Shown piece after piece: positions 1-33,692 of a stretch of 36,312 nucleotides of DNA (position 1 is its first letter; every line of letters begins with the position of its first letter). The stretch lies in IMG/VR virus record IMGVR_UViG_2579778938_000006. One strand, given 5' to 3'. Source of the DNA: a virus (taxonomy: Duplodnaviria; Heunggongvirae; Uroviricota; Caudoviricetes). The position numbers were made by a program, and so were the translations under genes. A model generated the notes under the pieces. The model worked only from the letters and a program-made list of their open reading frames with translations, was not told the DNA's origin and made no database searches.

Positions 1-756
1 TTACGGGGTAATGCCAACCGCTGCCGCCACTTTGTCGCCACTAGTGCTTTGTTTTTCGAATTCATCTAAGGCTCTTTCAACATCAGAAAGATACTCTTTG
101 AATGAGTTCAAGATCATGCTTAACGAGCCCCCCATAAATAGGACCTGTTTTCCATCTTTTTTAAAAAAATCAGGATATTTTTCTATAAGTTCAATAATGC
201 TTTTAATATTTTGCCCGTCGTTTTCTAAGTATTTTGCATCATTATGCGCACAACTGTTTCTTAATTTTGTTATTTTTTTGATATTCGAATAGTGGGATGT
301 TGACTTCATCCCTATCATTTTTTTGATAAATAGATGGCTCCTCTCAAATCCACTTCCTTTGAGATCTGAAACATTTATAGGAGAATGATGTCTATTAGCA
401 AAGTTGTTACAGAATTTTTCTATTTCGTGTTCAAAAATTCCGAATATAGTTAAGAATACTGACCTGCGGATAATACTTGGGTAGTATTCTAAAAACATTT
501 CATCGAGATCTAGCGATGAGCTGGTGAGTCCCATGTAATGATCAATTGACTGGTATACACCATCTTCCGGAGATATTTCAATTATATATTCTTCAGGTCC
601 TTTGTCTTTATATTCTGCTATGCCCTTAGCGATTGATGATTCGCTATGAGTGATTAACGTCTCGATAATATCAAATGTTAAAGAGAAGTCGAATATTGGT
701 AATTGAAACAAAAACTTAACCATGCTTGAGCCTTTAAGAATCTGATTTAGTAACAT
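1..756 (-). CDS. Hypothetical cargo protein (~240-251 aa) with RNxxAH (HEPN-like) motif; candidate Abi/defence or toxin protein
   Basis: AT-rich ORF downstream of int on the same strand; alternative start at 723 (MVKF...) has an AAAGG Shine-Dalgarno and avoids the overlap with int; contains LRNSCAHN; last codons cross the attL core. Confidence 0.55.
   Translation of the reverse strand: MLLNQILKGSSMVKFLFQLPIFDFSLTFDIIETLITHSESSIAKGIAEYKDKGPEEYIIEISPEDGVYQSIDHYMGLTSSSLDLDEMFLEYYPSIIRRSVFLTIFGIFEHEIEKFCNNFANRHHSPINVSDLKGSGFERSHLFIKKMIGMKSTSHYSNIKKITKLRNSCAHNDAKYLENDGQNIKSIIELIEKYPDFFKKDGKQVLFMGGSLSMILNSFKEYLSDVERALDEFEKQSTSGDKVAAAVGITP
19..40. repeat. attL: attL core candidate (cgctgccgccactttgtcgcca)
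   Basis: Matches 33458..33479 at 21 of 22 positions; lies just beyond the 3' end of int as in P2-like prophages. Confidence 0.6.
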
Positions 757-1765
757 CCAAAGTTGCTAGTGGATTGAAACGAAGAGCTGTCTCTAAGTGA
801 TCAGGTGATAGATGAGCATAACGCATAGTCATTTTTATGTCGTGATGTCCGAGGATTTTTTGCAAAGCAAGGATGTTTCCACCCGACATCATGAAATGCG
901 CCGCAAACGTATGGCGCAGAACGTGTGTCAGTTGACCGCGAGGGAGTACGATAGACGTTTTTTCCATCACAGATAAAAATTGAAAATAGCAGTCTGTGAA
1001 GAAATTGAACCCATCAAGCGCCATGATCTCTTCGTAAAGGTCTTTACTGATAGGGATGCTTCTGTTTTTCTTCCCTTTCGTTCTTACAAAGGTAATTCGG
1101 TATTTGGTTACCTGTGAGCGGGTAAGATTTACGGCTTCACGCCAGCGTGCGCCTGTGCTTAAGCATATCTTAACTACCAGTGCCAGTATTGGGTCCTGAC
1201 GTTTGCAATCAGCCAGCAATTCAACAATCTGCTCATGAGTAAGCCATGCCATCTCCTTTTCTGCGATGGTGAATTTTCGCATGTTCTCCAGTGGGTTCGG
1301 ATACGACCATTCGCCAAGGCGGGATAGTTCGCTAAAAACACTACTTAGATAGCTTTGCTCCAGGTTAATGGTGACCGGGCTTGCTCCTTTCTTCCATTTC
1401 TCGCTGAAGTAGATCTCGCCTGTCAGGCGTTTATCTCGATAGTGGGCAAACATTTTAGAGGTGAGATCAGTTGCAAGGGGATTGCCCAGAGCGTCAACCA
1501 TCAGCAGCAATTTGTCATAGACATGCTGCCCAGCAGTCAGTGATTTACCATGTAGTTTGAACCATAGCTCAACCACGTCTTTCAGTGTTCGACGATCCAC
1601 TGATTCACCTAGCCAGGGCTTTGCTTCGGTTTCTTCCATCGTGTGACGCTCAAAAGCCAGTGCTTCGCCTTTGGTGGCGAATTGTTTACGCACACGACGC
1701 CCACTACGTCCGGCGGGGTAACATTCGCAAAGCCATTTTCCTGTGGTGAGTTTTCGTACAGCCAT
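734..1765 (-). CDS. int: Tyrosine integrase (P2/186 Int family)
   Basis: Translation has conserved tyrosine-recombinase blocks (LSTGARWREA, HVLRHTFAAHFM, ILGHHDIKMTMRYAHL); likely start MAVRKLTTGKW at 1765 rather than the upstream ATG at 1921. Confidence 0.9.
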   Translation of the reverse strand: MAVRKLTTGKWLCECYPAGRSGRRVRKQFATKGEALAFERHTMEETEAKPWLGESVDRRTLKDVVELWFKLHGKSLTAGQHVYDKLLLMVDALGNPLATDLTSKMFAHYRDKRLTGEIYFSEKWKKGASPVTINLEQSYLSSVFSELSRLGEWSYPNPLENMRKFTIAEKEMAWLTHEQIVELLADCKRQDPILALVVKICLSTGARWREAVNLTRSQVTKYRITFVRTKGKKNRSIPISKDLYEEIMALDGFNFFTDCYFQFLSVMEKTSIVLPRGQLTHVLRHTFAAHFMMSGGNILALQKILGHHDIKMTMRYAHLSPDHLETALRFNPLATLDVTKSDS

Positions 1766-1953: not shown

Positions 1954-2145
1954 TTATCGTGAGTTTTTAGTACAGATTTTTTTGGATTTACTAATAGTTC
2001 CATCATTGCAAACGAATTTGCCATCTGAGGTACAGTGAGAAACACCTCCCTTTTTCCCTGAACAGGGATAATTTCTAGCATAGGTAGTTAGTGGGTTTAA
2101 TAACAAAGAACATGACAAAACCACAAAAAATACCTTACCAAGCAT
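1954..2145 (-). CDS. Small (63 aa) predicted secreted, lysine-rich, 4-Cys peptide in the cI-int operon
   Basis: Strong SD (GGAGGA) 5 nt upstream of ATG, 16 bp after the cI stop; N-terminal hydrophobic signal-like segment [23 protein letters not shown]; AT-rich. Confidence 0.5.
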
Positions 2146-2160: not shown

Positions 2161-2736
2161 CTATTTAACATACTTGACTGTTAAACTTATAATTTTACCA
2201 ATTATTTCAATGTCTTCTATCTTGCATTCGAAGGCTCTGTTTCCACCCTCGACGAAGATTCTTCCACCGGGTAAACGAGTAATGTCACGGATCGTTATTT
2301 CGCCATCAATACTTATTACCCATTTACCATCACGTATATCATCAAATTCCTTATCACAAATAAATTCAGAATTATTATCTGTGATTACAAAAAGATTCTT
2401 GAATACCGACGGTAGAAATTCCCTATCGAAAATATAAAAACCGTCTTCACACAAGGCCCCATCAGATAATACATATTTAGCAACTTCCATAGTATTTGTA
2501 TTACCTGAAGTTTGCTTTGAACCATGCCCGGTTGTGAGCCAATTAAGCGAGGTGCCCGTTTCAAGGGCGCACTGGATTACCCATTCTGCGGGGAATGAGT
2601 CACGCATGTAGCGTGTGGCGAGTGTACTTTTAGAGATTCCTAAATGATCGCACAACGCCTGTCGAGTCTTGAATCCATAAGCTTCTACCATGCGCTCTAT
2701 AGCGCCTCGTCCGCCTTTCTCCAAATTCATGGTCAC
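2161..2736 (-). CDS. cI: CI-type immunity repressor (186 CI-like, 191 aa, N-terminal HTH)
   Basis: Position immediately upstream of int on the same strand and divergent from apl/cII; HTH-like segment LCDHLGISKSTLATRYMR; size matches 186 CI rather than the ~100 aa P2 C. Confidence 0.8.
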   Translation of the reverse strand: MTMNLEKGGRGAIERMVEAYGFKTRQALCDHLGISKSTLATRYMRDSFPAEWVIQCALETGTSLNWLTTGHGSKQTSGNTNTMEVAKYVLSDGALCEDGFYIFDREFLPSVFKNLFVITDNNSEFICDKEFDDIRDGKWVISIDGEITIRDITRLPGGRIFVEGGNRAFECKIEDIEIIGKIISLTVKYVK

Positions 2737-8078: not shown

Positions 8079-8267
8079 ATGCAGGACTATTTTTTGGAGT
8101 CTTTGAAGCTCCAGCGCATTGATTTTTTTCTTAAGCTTGTAGCGGCTAGTGAGTGTAGTGATGAAGAGAAGGGGCTGGCTCTGCAGTGGGTTTCTGAATT
8201 GACTGATGAACTCATGGCAAAAATCAGAAGCCACGAATACAACCGCTCAATGGATGTCATCAGCTGA
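8079..8267 (+). CDS. tum: Tum-like SOS-inducible small protein (candidate antirepressor N-terminal module, 62 aa)
   Basis: AGGAGGA SD; directly downstream of the LexA box; position of 186 tum. Confidence 0.45.
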   Translation: MQDYFLESLKLQRIDFFLKLVAASECSDEEKGLALQWVSELTDELMAKIRSHEYNRSMDVIS

Positions 8268-8277
8268 GGTGACTTTT

Positions 8278-8511
8278 ATGCGCATTGAAATAATGATCGA
8301 TAAAGAGCAGAAAATTAGCCAGTCTACCCTGGACGCCCTTGAATCCGAGCTTTACCGCAATCTGCGCCCCCTGTATCCCAAAACGGTAATTCGTATCCGC
8401 AAAGGTAGCTCTAACGGTGTGGAACTGACCGGACTGCAACTGGACGAAGAAAGAAAACAAGTGATGAAAATTATGCAGAAGGTGTGGGAAGACGACAGCT
8501 GGCTGCATTAA
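8278..8511 (+). CDS. DinI-family protein (77 aa)
   Basis: Translation MRIEIMIDK...LDALESEL...IRIRKG...ERKQVMKIMQKVWEDDSW aligns by eye with E. coli DinI (MRIEVTIAK...IDALAGEL...KQRISEILQETWESADDW). Confidence 0.75.
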   Translation: MRIEIMIDKEQKISQSTLDALESELYRNLRPLYPKTVIRIRKGSSNGVELTGLQLDEERKQVMKIMQKVWEDDSWLH

Positions 8512-9016: not shown

Positions 9017-10135
9017 ATGTATCTTTTCAAGTATTACCGTCCGGACTTCTTCTTCGAGAAAGCTATTCGTTATAATGAATTATATTTTTCCGCTCCTGCG
9101 CAATTGAATGATCCTAATGATCTCAATATAGATTATCGTTTTGATAATAAATTGAAATTATGGGATATTTTATTGCGTTCTCCTTGCGATAAATCCTATA
9201 AAAATTTGAGTCACATATTAGATTTGAGTAATTTGAATATACATAAGGGATTGAATCGTATTTTTAGAGGAAAAAAAATAAAAAGTAGCATTGAGTCATT
9301 AGATAGCCTGTTTGACTCACACGTTGATGAGATACGTAAGATCATAAATGATGGTTTACTACCTATCAATGTGATTAATTCCGCTATTTATGGGAATATT
9401 CCTGAACCACGCCAATTTTTGGTCTCACTTTGCGAGAACAGTATCAAAGAAAGGTTGTATAGGAAAATAGTTCCTGCAGTATTCAGTGTGTCATTTTCAG
9501 CTAATGCGTTAGATCGTATGATGTGGGCGCATTATGCTGCAGGCTTTAGTGGTTGTGTTGTGATTTATGAAACGCAGGATTTTAATATTAATGGCGTACC
9601 ACATCCTGGAATGAAGTTAAGAGAAAATTTATTTTCATCAGATAAAATTAATTTTCCAGTTAAGCCAATAAAATATAGTAATCAAGCTAAAGAGGTTTCA
9701 CTTCTAGACCCAAGCGCAAATGTTGCAGAGTTATTTTTAACTAAAAATAGATTTTGGAGATATGAAGCTGAATATCGAATGTTTATTCCAGAGGCAAATG
9801 CAGGAATAGGGAGTGAGCGGCATGTTCAAAGACACGTAAATCGAAATATTGGACATGTTTTTCATCATGATGCTAATGTTGTTAAAGGGATCATTTTTGG
9901 TCCTAGAATGTGTGAAATGAAAAAAGAAAGCATATGGAATTGTATCAAGTCAAATATGGAGAATTCAAATTCAACAATATGTTATTTTTTTGACTCTGAG
10001 TTATCAGCATCAGGAAAGATTACTATTTCAAAAGGGCAACGAGCGGAAAAAATGAAAAATTTCCCTTTGTTCAGGAACAAGTTAAGTCAGACGGAAATGG
10101 CTAAAGTTTTGAAGGAAATTGGCATTACGAACTAA
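9017..10135 (+). CDS. Hypothetical 372-aa cargo protein, DUF2971-like N-terminus; candidate anti-phage gene
   Basis: Very AT-rich; N-terminus LFKYYRPDFFFEKAIRYNELYFSAPAQLNDPNDL resembles the DUF2971 signature as I recall it; own terminator downstream; in the P2 old/tin hotspot position. Confidence 0.6.
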   Translation: MYLFKYYRPDFFFEKAIRYNELYFSAPAQLNDPNDLNIDYRFDNKLKLWDILLRSPCDKSYKNLSHILDLSNLNIHKGLNRIFRGKKIKSSIESLDSLFDSHVDEIRKIINDGLLPINVINSAIYGNIPEPRQFLVSLCENSIKERLYRKIVPAVFSVSFSANALDRMMWAHYAAGFSGCVVIYETQDFNINGVPHPGMKLRENLFSSDKINFPVKPIKYSNQAKEVSLLDPSANVAELFLTKNRFWRYEAEYRMFIPEANAGIGSERHVQRHVNRNIGHVFHHDANVVKGIIFGPRMCEMKKESIWNCIKSNMENSNSTICYFFDSELSASGKITISKGQRAEKMKNFPLFRNKLSQTEMAKVLKEIGITN

Positions 10136-10409: not shown

Positions 10410-12191
10410 ATGAATTTTGATGCAACACCACTAAATATAAAAAACATTCTATCTGTAAAACAAAGATATGTTATTCCTCGTAATCAACGTGAGTTTAGTT
10501 GGGAAAAGCTTCAGCTTGAAGAGTTATGGCAAGATATTGTCAGAAACATAAGGTTGAATGAAGATGGACAGAACTTGGAGTGTTCAGAATATTTTATAGG
10601 GACTATTGTTCTTTCTGGAGCAGATAGTGATGATGTATTAGAAGTGGTTGATGGACAACAACGATTTTCAGTTATTACTATATTGCTTTCATTAATATCG
10701 CGTAAATTGCGTTCCTTAGGGCAAGATTCATTAGCGGATGATATATTTAAAACATATATCGTTACTGTGAGTCCTACATTTAGCAGAAGCCAATTAGCTT
10801 CAAATGGTGAGACATTTATTGAAAAATTAGCAAAAAATAGCGATAGAACATATTTTAAGTTAAAATATCAAGATCGCGAAGAGCATCAAGTTGATGAATC
10901 TTGTGAAGAGGATGTACGTATAAGTTATGCAGGAATTTTTCTTTCTAGAAAACTAGGGAGGAAATCACTCTGTTCTGCATTGTTGCGAGATGGTGCAAAA
11001 CATTATAATAACCAAGATTATATATTTTGTTTGACTGCTGTATATAGAATGATTACCAATTATTTGAAGTTGGTAAAAATATCTGTAGGTAAGGAGGATG
11101 ATGCTTATGATATTTTTGAAGTGTTGAATGCTCGAGGGATAAACTTAAGTTCAATTGATTTGATAAAGAATAAAGTATTCCAAACTTGCACTCAAACATA
11201 TCCGGTAGATATTGCAAAAACAAAATGGGATTATATCGTTACTCAAATTGAGTCTAGGGATAGTAATAGCACTATTGCTGATTATATTAGAACGTGGTGG
11301 CTTTCTAAGTATAATTATATTGGAGAAGATCAACTTTATCGTGCTTTTAAACGTGAGATTCAAGATGAGAATACTTTATTGTCATCAGCATCATTTCTGA
11401 ACGAATTATATGATGATGTTGAATTATACTGTAAAATAATAGCGCCAAATACAGATGACTGGCCTCAACCTGATCAGCGTGAAATTTACAACTCGTTAAA
11501 AGCATTCGAGATTTTTAATGTGAGTATTCCTCGACCATTTGTACTCTCATTACTTAGAAAACGTAAAGAGAAACCGAGAGCCCTTACACAATCAATGCTG
11601 ATAGAATGTTTGAAGTCCTTAGAGTCATTTCACTTTAAGTTTAATGCAGTATGTCGTCTAAGACCATCTGGAATCGATGCAAAATATTCTGTATTAGCAG
11701 TAAGAATGAATAAGGCATTAAATAAAAGAGATGTTGAGGGTGTTATTAATGACGCGTTAGATTATTTTACACAGAAAGGGCCTTCAGAAAATATATTCAA
11801 ACAAGCATTTTCAAAGAATATTGTTTATACAAATAAAAAGTCTGGGCAAAGGAAGTTGATTGTTTATATTTTTGACAAATTGGAACGTATCAGACGAGGG
11901 ACACGAGAGTTAAAAATGGATATAGTTTCTTTGGAACACATATCATCTCAAAGCAAAACTAACGAGTCAGTCGTGGGTATGATTGGTAATTTACTACCAC
12001 TCTGTTTTTCACTTAATGAAGATTGCAAAAATTATGAGTTGCACAAAAAAATAGAATCTTATAAAAAATCTGATTTAAAATTAGTTACAGAGTTTGTTAG
12101 TGAGTCAGAAGCAAGAGAACATAAATGGGATGATTCATTAATAAAAGAAAGAACAGATAGCTTGGCGTTAGAAACGTTTGCTAAAATATAA
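10410..12191 (+). CDS. DUF262 (ParB-like/GmrS) + DUF1524 (His-Me finger/GmrD) fusion nuclease, 593 aa; GmrSD/BrxU-like type IV restriction candidate
   Basis: Motifs VIPRNQREFSWE, VDGQQRFSVI, FEVLNARGINLSSIDLIKNK (DUF262) and SLEHISSQ...GNLLPL...NEDCKN (DUF1524-like); AT-rich; GAGGA SD. Confidence 0.8.
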   Translation: MNFDATPLNIKNILSVKQRYVIPRNQREFSWEKLQLEELWQDIVRNIRLNEDGQNLECSEYFIGTIVLSGADSDDVLEVVDGQQRFSVITILLSLISRKLRSLGQDSLADDIFKTYIVTVSPTFSRSQLASNGETFIEKLAKNSDRTYFKLKYQDREEHQVDESCEEDVRISYAGIFLSRKLGRKSLCSALLRDGAKHYNNQDYIFCLTAVYRMITNYLKLVKISVGKEDDAYDIFEVLNARGINLSSIDLIKNKVFQTCTQTYPVDIAKTKWDYIVTQIESRDSNSTIADYIRTWWLSKYNYIGEDQLYRAFKREIQDENTLLSSASFLNELYDDVELYCKIIAPNTDDWPQPDQREIYNSLKAFEIFNVSIPRPFVLSLLRKRKEKPRALTQSMLIECLKSLESFHFKFNAVCRLRPSGIDAKYSVLAVRMNKALNKRDVEGVINDALDYFTQKGPSENIFKQAFSKNIVYTNKKSGQRKLIVYIFDKLERIRRGTRELKMDIVSLEHISSQSKTNESVVGMIGNLLPLCFSLNEDCKNYELHKKIESYKKSDLKLVTEFVSESEAREHKWDDSLIKERTDSLALETFAKI

Positions 12192-20989: not shown

Positions 20990-21520
20990 TTACGCACTTA
21001 ATAAACTTAAATAACTTTTTATGCTTTGGCAAAAAGGGAAAAGGTCTATTTTAATTTTCCAGTTTTTTTTGTTTTGAACCCCAGAAGCAATAATAGAACC
21101 ATCCCAATATTTTATTCCATTTTTGCCGGTCTTTTTTGTTAACTCAAAACTTAATGCGTGAATAATTTTATTGCAGCATTCGCGTATAGAACCTTTAACA
21201 TGACCATCTATAACAAAAAGTATATTTTCATGTTCTTCAAATGCTTCTTTCTCAGGTGAGTAATCTGGGTTCCACTCATGTTCACTAGTGTCTTGGAGAA
21301 TTCGTAGTTTTGTACAAAGGCTAATAAGATTGTTGCTAATGGTATATTCCAACCATCCGTTGTACGATAACTCCTCCATTTCAAATTCAGTTACTATAGA
21401 ATCATCATATACTTTCTGTGTGGAATATATACGCTGTAAATAAAATTCAGATGAACAGCATAATTGCTCAATTATTCTTGCGTGTTCTTCTATAGCGTAA
21501 TAATCAATTGGATGGCTCAT
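20990..21520 (-). CDS. Hypothetical moron protein (176 aa; 189 aa if started at 21559) between tail genes S and V on the opposite strand
   Basis: AT-rich ORF antiparallel to the late operons; AAAGG SD before ATG 21520; convergent with S, divergent from V. Confidence 0.6.
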   Translation of the reverse strand: MSHPIDYYAIEEHARIIEQLCCSSEFYLQRIYSTQKVYDDSIVTEFEMEELSYNGWLEYTISNNLISLCTKLRILQDTSEHEWNPDYSPEKEAFEEHENILFVIDGHVKGSIRECCNKIIHALSFELTKKTGKNGIKYWDGSIIASGVQNKKNWKIKIDLFPFCQSIKSYLSLLSA

Positions 21521-21551
21521 TCTTTTACCTTTCTTCGATTGGAATTGTATT

Positions 21552-21569
21552 TGTGTCATTTACCACACA
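21552..21569. promoter_or_regulatory. TGT-N12-ACA dyad (Ogr/Delta site) upstream of V (PV-like late promoter)
   Basis: TGTgtcatttaccacACA centred ~55 bp upstream of the V ATG. Confidence 0.45.
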
Positions 21570-33238: not shown

Positions 33239-33457
33239 ATGATGATTTGCCCACTGTGTGGAAGTGCCGCCCATACTCGCAGCAGTTTTCAGGTATCTTC
33301 ATTGACCAAAGAGCGTTACAACCAGTGCCAGAACATTAACTGCAGCCATACTTTTGTTACCCATGAAACTTTTGTTCGTTCGATTGCAACGCCAAAAGAG
33401 TCAAATCCGGTTCAGCCGCATCCAATGAAATCAGGACAGGTGGCGCTCTCTCTTTGA
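33239..33457 (+). CDS. ogr: Ogr/Delta-family zinc-finger late transcription activator (72 aa)
   Basis: MMICPLCGSAAHTRSS...ERYNQCQNINCSHTF matches the P2 Ogr Cys4 pattern (CPLC...CQNxNC); last phage gene before attR. Confidence 0.85.
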   Translation: MMICPLCGSAAHTRSSFQVSSLTKERYNQCQNINCSHTFVTHETFVRSIATPKESNPVQPHPMKSGQVALSL

Positions 33458-33479
33458 CGCTGCCGCCATTTTGTCGCCA
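33458..33479. repeat. attR: attR core candidate (cgctgccgccattttgtcgcca)
   Basis: Direct repeat of 19..40 (1 mismatch); located 1 bp after the ogr stop, before the ybjL terminator. Confidence 0.6.
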
Positions 33480-33534
33480 TCGTTAAAAAACAGTGTTTCT
33501 AACATCATGATTTTAAACAGCTTAAATTTCAGGC

Positions 33535-33580
33535 AACAAAAAACCCATCAACCTTGAACCGAAATGGCGGGGTTGATGGG
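33535..33580 (-). terminator. Rho-independent terminator downstream of ybjL (minus strand)
   Basis: 10-bp stem CCCATCAACC / GGTTGATGGG followed on the minus strand by TTTTTTGTT; loop is long (17 nt). Confidence 0.5.
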
Positions 33581-33692
33581 CTCCACAAAATGGGGACATC
33601 AAAGAAAAGCAGTGGCACTAATTAAGACTGATGCCCTGCGGAAAAGTTCTGCGGTTGTGCAAAAAAATTTCATTTTCAGGGCAACTTCAGTT

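Follow-up and report, generated by a model that had tools for sequence, protein, structure and literature searches.

The DNA analysed here, called the window below, is a stretch of 36,312 nucleotides from a virus of the Caudoviricetes (IMG/VR record IMGVR_UViG_2579778938_000006). It holds nearly the whole of a P2-like prophage with 186-type regulation. At its left end, at positions 1..723 on the minus strand, lies a cargo gene that codes for a stand-alone HEPN-like protein of 240 residues. The gene follows int (734..1765, minus strand), which encodes a tyrosine integrase of 343 residues (Pfam Int_N, 3.6e-32; Phage_integrase, 2e-21). A 186-type CI repressor gene at 2161..2736 (minus strand; Pfam Phage_CI_repr, 2.8e-33; Phage_CI_C, 6.3e-27) is co-oriented with both. 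At the right end an ogr-type gene stops at 33457, and ybjL, ybjM and grxA come after it. In complete E. coli genomes, the host site of the same element has rcdA on one side and ybjL on the other.

The original prediction, made from the letters of this DNA, described an AT-rich accessory open reading frame (ORF) directly downstream of int and co-oriented with it. The map bears this out. The cargo gene begins 11 bp past the int stop, on the same strand, and its GC content is 0.344 compared with 0.464 for int. At third codon positions the values are 0.336 and 0.456; the GC content of the whole prophage is 0.503. Two starts had been considered, at 756 and at 723. The ORF list gives the longer form (1..756, minus strand, 251 residues), and the upstream in-frame ATG at 756 has no support from homologues. 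The ATG at 723 is the start both in the PGAP annotation and in all homologues, which begin with MVK, and a Shine-Dalgarno sequence AAGG lies 7 nt ahead of it. The shorter form, with its 11-bp gap, is therefore the one that stands.

The codons at 244..261 (minus strand) spell R155-N-S-C-A-H160, which is the RNxxAH motif noted earlier and an instance of the Rx4-6H pattern of HEPN proteins. A single such occurrence is no evidence alone, because about 0.6 occurrences are expected by chance in a protein of this composition. Conservation is a different matter. At E <= 1e-3, 2,072 cluster representatives are recovered by an exhaustive profile search; nearly all have 220-240 residues and match over the full length. 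Across 96 relatives with 20-58% identity, R155 is invariant, and N156, H160, E28, P82, R86, E98 and C105 are at least 90% conserved. The family-wide conservation of the motif is significant. In HEPN proteins the residue right after the arginine is polar (N, D or H; PMC3710099), and here N156 directly follows the invariant R155.

Sub-threshold Pfam matches of the cargo protein are nearly all to HEPN families, and all fall on residues ~133-219. They include HEPN_RiboL-PSP, Abi_2, pEK499_p136, MAE_28990, AbiU2, Apea, DUF3644 and Cthe2314. The match to Abi_2 (AbiD/AbiF, PF07751) covers the motif segment only and scores 14.6-14.7 bits, under the cut-off of 25.6. The RiboL-PSP-HEPN model (PF18735) is matched by 18 of the 96 relatives, the best with an E-value of 4.2e-8 (an estimated ~34 bits). 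Anantharaman et al. (2013, PMC3710099) describe this family as a distant relative of AbiD and AbiF. Two of the 96 relatives match PF18730, the Cthe_2314-like HEPN family, at 0.0015. The same model is absent among the matches listed to E 10 for queries P0190, P0191 and P0022, where HMMER filters drop most matches above ~0.1. UniRef names a near-identical cluster member “Cthe-2314-like HEPN domain-containing protein”, and a match to that family was not reproduced.

Other resources give less. PADLOC yields weak matches to Cas13a HEPN, reverse transcriptase-associated HEPN and HEC-01A models, and PHROGs assigns the protein to phrog_21382 (function unknown) at 9e-10. Profile searches of PDB sequences return nothing meaningful, a tblastn search of the protein against 50,697 phage records returns zero matches, and literature searches on its protein accessions find none.

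The predicted structure adds a second kind of evidence. The AlphaFold2 model has a mean local confidence (pLDDT) of 86 and a template modelling score (pTM) of 0.80. Its long helices span residues 14-41, 73-111, 145-161 and 200-236. The first of them is succeeded by a beta-hairpin, residues 125-137 make up a short helix, and beyond the motif there is a small insert consisting of a helix and a hairpin. Helix 145-161 has the motif at its C-terminal end and leads on to a loop, and the conserved E98 belongs to the long helix before it, 73-111. In HEPN domains the motif is found at the end of core helix 3 and the start of the loop to helix 4, and a conserved acidic residue is found in helix 2 (PMC3710099). 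The placement of helix, loop and E98 in the predicted structure agrees with this description, with an inexact Ex3[KR] spacing. The best Foldseek matches in the PDB are HepT toxins with non-significant E-values. A fold search of BFVD returns only uncharacterised viral proteins.

Together, sequence and model make membership of the HEPN superfamily likely, the support for the fold being moderate. Assignment to any named HEPN family is not established. The protein is nearest to the AbiD/AbiF/RiboL-PSP clade and belongs to an uncharacterised family of its own, about 230 residues long with a conserved Rx4H motif.

Likenesses to that clade (PMC3710099) are several. Both have an Rx4H motif with N after R, placed at a helix end and followed by a loop; both carry a conserved acidic residue in the long helix before that one, as well as a helical insert between core helices. 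Likewise, both are stand-alone proteins borne on mobile elements in Abi-like contexts, and the clade is the source of the best hidden Markov model matches. There are also differences. The cargo protein stays under every curated cut-off, and has neither a fusion to L-PSP nor a ParB neighbour. It carries the beta-hairpin after helix 1 and the helix-plus-hairpin insert after the motif, and its family of ~230 residues conserves the additional positions E28, P82, R86 and C105.

The way in which the gene is inserted becomes clear by comparison with relatives in which nothing separates int from the attachment region. In the commonest relatives at this site, int codes for 350 residues ending in ...NPLATLPSGDKVAAAVGITP, and its stop codon corresponds to window positions 1-3. 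In three loci (L003, L018 and L019), int reads ...LATLPSGDKVAAAVGITP to its stop and continues straight into window positions 1..42. Compared with these, the window has an inserted segment at 43..757 (minus strand; GC 0.330), which includes seven new terminal int codons (DVTKSDS) and a new int stop. Positions 1..42 (minus strand) were once the 3' end of int, SGDKVAAAVGITP with its stop, and have been displaced; they are identical to the last 42 nt of the 350-residue int in L003 and in phage KP12. They now encode the C-terminal tail of the cargo protein. By this insertion, int was deprived of its last 14 codons. The integrase of the window lacks the ancestral 14-residue tail and has seven other residues in its place, ending in ...NPLATLDVTKSDS at 734; the cargo protein ends in ...QSTSGDKVAAAVGITP.

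The cargo gene has no stop codon of its own, so its reading frame continues in phase across the former int tail and ends at the former int stop. As a result, its last 13 codons are displaced int codons, fused in frame and overlapping the integrase-binding sites described below. The tail is predicted to be disordered, with pLDDT below 50 at residues 231-240. The fused tail is also present in homologues from Raoultella, Cronobacter, Phytobacter, Citrobacter and Enterobacter, whose identity is 75-79%. It is missing from homologues with at most 59% identity, which stop at the AGTGGCGAC junction or a few bases before it; in one of them (L113) a TAG stop is formed across the junction.

Such read-through could mean that the frame is a decaying, non-functional remnant and that the extension into the int tail is damage. 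The stop codon was lost or never present, more distant homologues end just ahead of the arm sites, and the gene is rare in E. coli, all of which would suit this explanation. Yet the fused form is intact at 75-79% amino acid identity in all five genera just named, every conserved family residue is kept, and the tail is both predicted to be disordered and dispensable in relatives. A remnant is therefore very improbable. The conclusion is that recombination at a fixed junction produced the fusion as a tolerated side effect, and that it is not a switch.

The junction itself lies next to a 22-bp direct repeat, found at 19..40 and 33458..33479 with one mismatch; 100 shuffles of the sequence gave no such repeat. 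The original prediction took the copy at 19..40 for the attL core. On that view the 3' end of the cargo frame crosses the core, its final six codons come from host flank, and the C-terminus of the protein switches between prophage and excised forms. The repeat is genuine and does lie near both prophage ends. All three claims nevertheless fail, on four grounds.

First, window positions 1..40 occur in 1,104 of 5,426 complete E. coli genomes, and the right flank in 5,419. In the ~4,300 prophage-free genomes, which retain the rcdA-rybB-ybjL locus, positions 1..40 are missing and the right-flank match begins only at 33523 or 33535. Second, empty sites hold another sequence. In K-12 and strain ZJ3920 (L119 and L120) the site reads ...AACAAAAAACCCAT followed by CAACCTTGAACC..., and attL in two lysogens reads ...AACAAAAAACCCAT followed by TTATGTAAACGGGTT.... 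The 14-bp sequence AACAAAAAACCCAT is common to both empty sites, to attL of L001 and L002 (5913-5926), to attR of the window at 33535..33548 (plus strand), and to attP of the record described next. It is the true core; at attL it is found outside the window, 75-88 bp to the left of position 1.

Third, a record of a Klebsiella phage KP12 clone (OM835953, L116) has the attP form in one contiguous piece. In order, it has ogr, a first repeat copy, 53 bp, AACAAAAAACCCAT, 92 bp, a second repeat copy within the 3' end of int, and int. Both repeat copies are thus present, 145 bp apart, with the true core in between. The IMG/VR loci that carry the cargo gene are all in prophage form (20 of 20), and hence supply no attP junction. 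Fourth, the repeat fits the published consensus for arm sites of 186-type integrases, tgccGCCActt (PMC3448106). A pattern search with this consensus resolves the left copy into a P'-arm pair of tandem repeats at 22..42 (plus strand), TGCCGCCACT and TGTCGCCACT, in an 11-bp register, and both units fit. The P-arm pair lies at 33458..33481 (plus strand), immediately past the ogr stop, as found by the repeat, the pattern search and the attP-form record.

For these reasons the repeat consists of Int arm-binding sites and not of the crossover core, and the earlier view is refuted, with practically no probability left to it. The six codons assigned to host flank are phage DNA, namely the displaced int tail. 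Since the true core lies outside the frame and all of its codons are phage DNA, the cargo protein is identical in integrated and excised forms.

The core also identifies the host target. The prophage is integrated at the 3' end of rybB, a sigma-E-dependent small RNA gene at 33535..33613 (minus strand; Rfam RF00110, 105.3 bits, full length 1-79), whose final 14 nt are the attachment core. Because the RybB terminator ends in the 14-bp core, the gene is intact at attR. At attL, a phage-supplied substitute hairpin stands ahead of the shared T-tract. A hairpin at 33540-33580 was considered as a terminator of ybjL and rejected, since Rfam assigns it to the rybB terminator. Literature searches on rybB as a P2-like integration site found none.

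Two attB alleles are seen at the empty sites. Compared with window positions 33523..33548, K-12 and ZJ3920 differ in whether identity with the phage extends over the 14-bp core only or over 26 bp (AAATTTCAGGCAACAAAAAACCCAT). The 26-bp allele could be a footprint of past integration and excision, or a longer functional core.

The arm sites also explain a feature of the integrases. A G-D/G-K-V/M-A-A motif recurs in the tails of integrases of only 50-75% identity with differing later residues (L018-L094), and it is encoded by the arm-site sequence GGCGACAAAGTGGCGGCAG. It recurs because its codons overlap the arm sites, so the constraint presumably acts on the DNA. From these comparisons, the location of P'-arm Int-binding sites inside the coding 3' end of int seems general in the lineage.

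The cargo gene fills a slot that starts at the end of the catalytic domain of the integrase (...NPLATL) and ends at the P'-arm Int-binding repeats of attP. The slot was surveyed in 77 species-level loci with related integrases, and the arm-site sequence was recognisable in 22. In nine of these it is empty and int runs directly into the arm sites. In the remaining 13 it is filled with 336-1,257 bp of mostly AT-rich cargo, and at least eight unrelated cargos are present. Whether related prophages carry different genes between int and the attachment site had been named as a check, and they do. The slot can vary without breaking integration because the arm sites are kept intact by the fixed junction at which cassettes are exchanged.

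The occupants are diverse. A protein of 89 residues fills the slot in five loci. Others are a protein with a transmembrane segment and pentapeptide repeats, a Gly-rich repeat protein, a secreted-looking repeat protein, and three distinct membrane proteins encoded on the other strand. Of these three, one scores 37.8 bits with the putAbiC model (PF16872), whose cut-off is 22. A HEPN homologue occupies the slot in Salmonella, and a cargo of 110 residues occupies it in E. coli B. Within E. coli, the slot is thus empty or holds the 89-residue, the 110-residue or the HEPN cargo.

The interval between int and att has been described as a minor defence hotspot of P2-like phages, with 3% of their systems (PMC13586616, 2026). 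The cargo gene is placed as in that hotspot: it lies between int and att, inside the element, at a position whose content varies among similar phages. It is very probable that it is a HEPN-fold accessory gene in a variable slot.

Homologues are found in several other settings. Some are found in P2-like prophages of Enterobacter ludwigii, Serratia marcescens and a metagenome, where they too fill the slot that separates int from the arm sites. Others lie downstream of primase, between primase and att, in P4-like satellites of Raoultella and Pantoea, once adjoining a DUF4238 gene. One is close to psiB and ssb in the leading region of a plasmid, and another is beside resolvases. A further homologue lies in a defence island, 9 bp past a ResIII helicase gene and beside Zeta-toxin, PglZ and SMC-like genes. 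Because the neighbours in these contexts share nothing else, the gene behaves as a self-contained single-gene module on mobile elements. No context contains a ParB or L-PSP neighbour, and the cargo protein has a single domain.

Certain distant homologues do have recurrent partners. On two P4-like contigs (L009, 4869..6687, and L010) a DUF4238 protein is encoded directly upstream. In the defence island (L126, 269..4808), a 659-residue protein and the ResIII helicase are encoded directly upstream of the HEPN homologue, with the 9-bp gap mentioned above. Going by these arrangements, some subfamilies may work as multi-gene systems.

The contexts bear on the possibility that the cargo protein is the toxin of an addiction module, resembling a toxin-antitoxin pair, that stabilises the prophage. 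Its antidote would then be an unrecognised small RNA, an overlapping frame or a phage protein. The nearest solved folds are the HepT toxins of MNT-HEPN systems (5yep, 7bxo, 8xdj), together with HI0074 (1jog); they are the best matches among solved structures, and the target chains are covered almost fully. Unlike the cargo protein, these are half its size, and the matches have an identity of 8-12% and modest scores. HepT toxins are paired with an MNT antitoxin, whereas neither an MNT gene nor any other candidate antitoxin gene was found adjoining the cargo gene or its homologues in the loci examined. The cargo gene itself is flanked by int and by the attP arm or host DNA.

A 93-residue frame antisense to the cargo gene (11..292, plus strand), which begins within the arm sites, could be put forward as the partner. 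It is open in four of five relatives of 75-79% identity. Against this, it is interrupted in the fifth (L101) and absent from more distant homologues, for which it was rejected as a partner gene; it is probably a by-product of codon composition. The neighbours, moreover, are wholly different from one context to another. An addiction toxin is on balance quite unlikely.

A second alternative keeps the HEPN-like fold and gives it a role outside immunity, such as RNA processing or regulation for the phage, counter-defence, or host fitness. Other occupants of the slot include small winged helix-turn-helix-like, membrane and secreted-looking proteins with no link to defence. Likewise, one homologue is located in a plasmid leading region, and anti-defence genes are common in such regions. 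These observations have to be set against the family-wide conservation of a catalytic-type motif, the recurrence of the gene at the cargo positions of P2 and P4 elements and within a defence island, and the AbiC-like nature of one other slot occupant. A role of this kind is unlikely, if slightly less so than an addiction toxin.

The preferred explanation is that the gene is a phage-borne HEPN accessory gene in a hypervariable slot, encoding an anti-phage RNase that stays latent in the lysogen. In phage 186, the lysogenic promoter drives cI and int. The cargo gene would be transcribed together with them on the lysogenic cI-int transcript, with translation coupled to that of int; expression from this transcript is plausible. 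A scan with a terminator consensus places a terminator-like hairpin for minus-strand transcripts at attL, about 60 bp past the cargo stop. The protein would act as a metal-independent RNase with its site at the Rx4H motif. It would remain latent until another phage infects the lysogen, and RNA cleavage might then lead to abortive infection or exclusion.

Several results weigh against this explanation. The cargo protein reaches the curated cut-off of no HEPN family model; its best score, to RiboL-PSP-HEPN (PF18735), is 17.4 bits (E 0.0043) against a gathering cut-off of 28.4. No PADLOC, NCBIfam or named defence model matches it. A promoter scan finds sites no more numerous than expected by chance. 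Finally, the HEPN cargo is present in only 25 of 5,426 E. coli genomes, among the ~1,100 prophages at the site. Taking these points into account, the whole explanation is given a probability of roughly 60%. Its functional part, that the protein is an anti-phage RNase, has about an even chance.

Two further ideas go beyond this explanation. The family of ~230-residue proteins, with its ~2,000 cluster representatives, is tentatively proposed, at somewhat less than even odds, to be a new single-gene abortive-infection or exclusion RNase system. It would have been missed by defence catalogues, and would move among the P2 slot, the P4 primase-att slot, plasmids and defence islands. More speculatively, occupancy of the P' arm by Int could modulate the 3' end of the transcript, and hence the expression of the effector, for the fused variant during integration or excision.

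Part of this picture is already known. Prophage-borne cargo of HEPN or Abi type in a P2-like hotspot is on record, and the int-att hotspot was published in 2026. The P2-like defence hotspots (Rousset 2022, PMC9122126; Vassallo 2022, PMC9519451; PMC13586616) resemble the present case in that AT-rich cargo is swappable between conserved phage genes, and the prophage in the window also has PDC-S31-like and GmrSD genes in its main hotspot. In contrast to the systems found there, the cargo gene matches no DefenseFinder- or PADLOC-type model tried. The slot is also placed more exactly here, upstream of the P'-arm sites and inside the ancestral 3' end of int. Overlap with an integrase gene is said to be frequent for PD-T7-4 (PMC9519451), which was rejected as an identity for the cargo gene, since the cargo protein matches no PADLOC model.

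A further comparison is Tha, the tail-activated HEPN defence of S. aureus prophages (PMC11087260). Both are prophage-encoded HEPN proteins with a proposed anti-phage function. They differ in host and phage type, no sequence relationship is detected, and an activator is known only for Tha, so that the comparison is an analogy only.

None of the defence catalogues tried includes the family, which is uncharacterised. A slot inside the 3' end of int, a fixed P'-arm junction and the capture of the int tail appear to be undescribed in the literature searched. Should the protein prove to be an active anti-phage RNase, the defence catalogues would gain a compact (720-bp), single-gene HEPN family that they now lack and whose mobile-element ecology is already clear. 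Independently of function, an attP of the P2/186 type is mapped in detail, its core falling in the rybB terminator and its paired arm sites lying at distances of 53 and 92 bp, and int of this lineage is seen normally to end inside its own P'-arm binding sites. The case also cautions that direct repeats near prophage ends may be arm sites and not the crossover core.

The KP12 record (OM835953.1, “Klebsiella phage KP12 clone KP12_3”), although classified under Vequintavirinae, is actually a complete-looking P2-like genome in attP form, with an int 96% identical to that of the window, and is presumably an induced prophage of the propagation host.

The classical P2 hotspot, between the replication gene and the portal gene, holds an AT-rich island preceded by a DinI-like gene (8206..8511, plus strand). 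The island encodes a PDC-S31-like/DUF2971 protein (9017..10135, plus strand) and a GmrSD-family type IV restriction enzyme (10410..12191, plus strand); the latter matches HEC-06/Orf5 models at 7e-75. A patch in the tail-gene region that is sharply richer in AT (GC 0.32), at about the place of Z/fun in P2, contains a 189-residue frame (20990..21559, minus strand) with zero Pfam or PADLOC matches.

The interval between cI and int is variable, as the int-att slot is. In the window it holds a 63-residue frame of the YdcA family (1954..2145, minus strand). In six relatives (L002, L005, L013, L016, L115 and L118) the occupants are an unknown protein of 314 or 526 residues, a KAP NTPase of 483 residues, a SNIPE/T5orf172 protein of 558 residues, and a 558-residue “chromosome segregation ATPase”.

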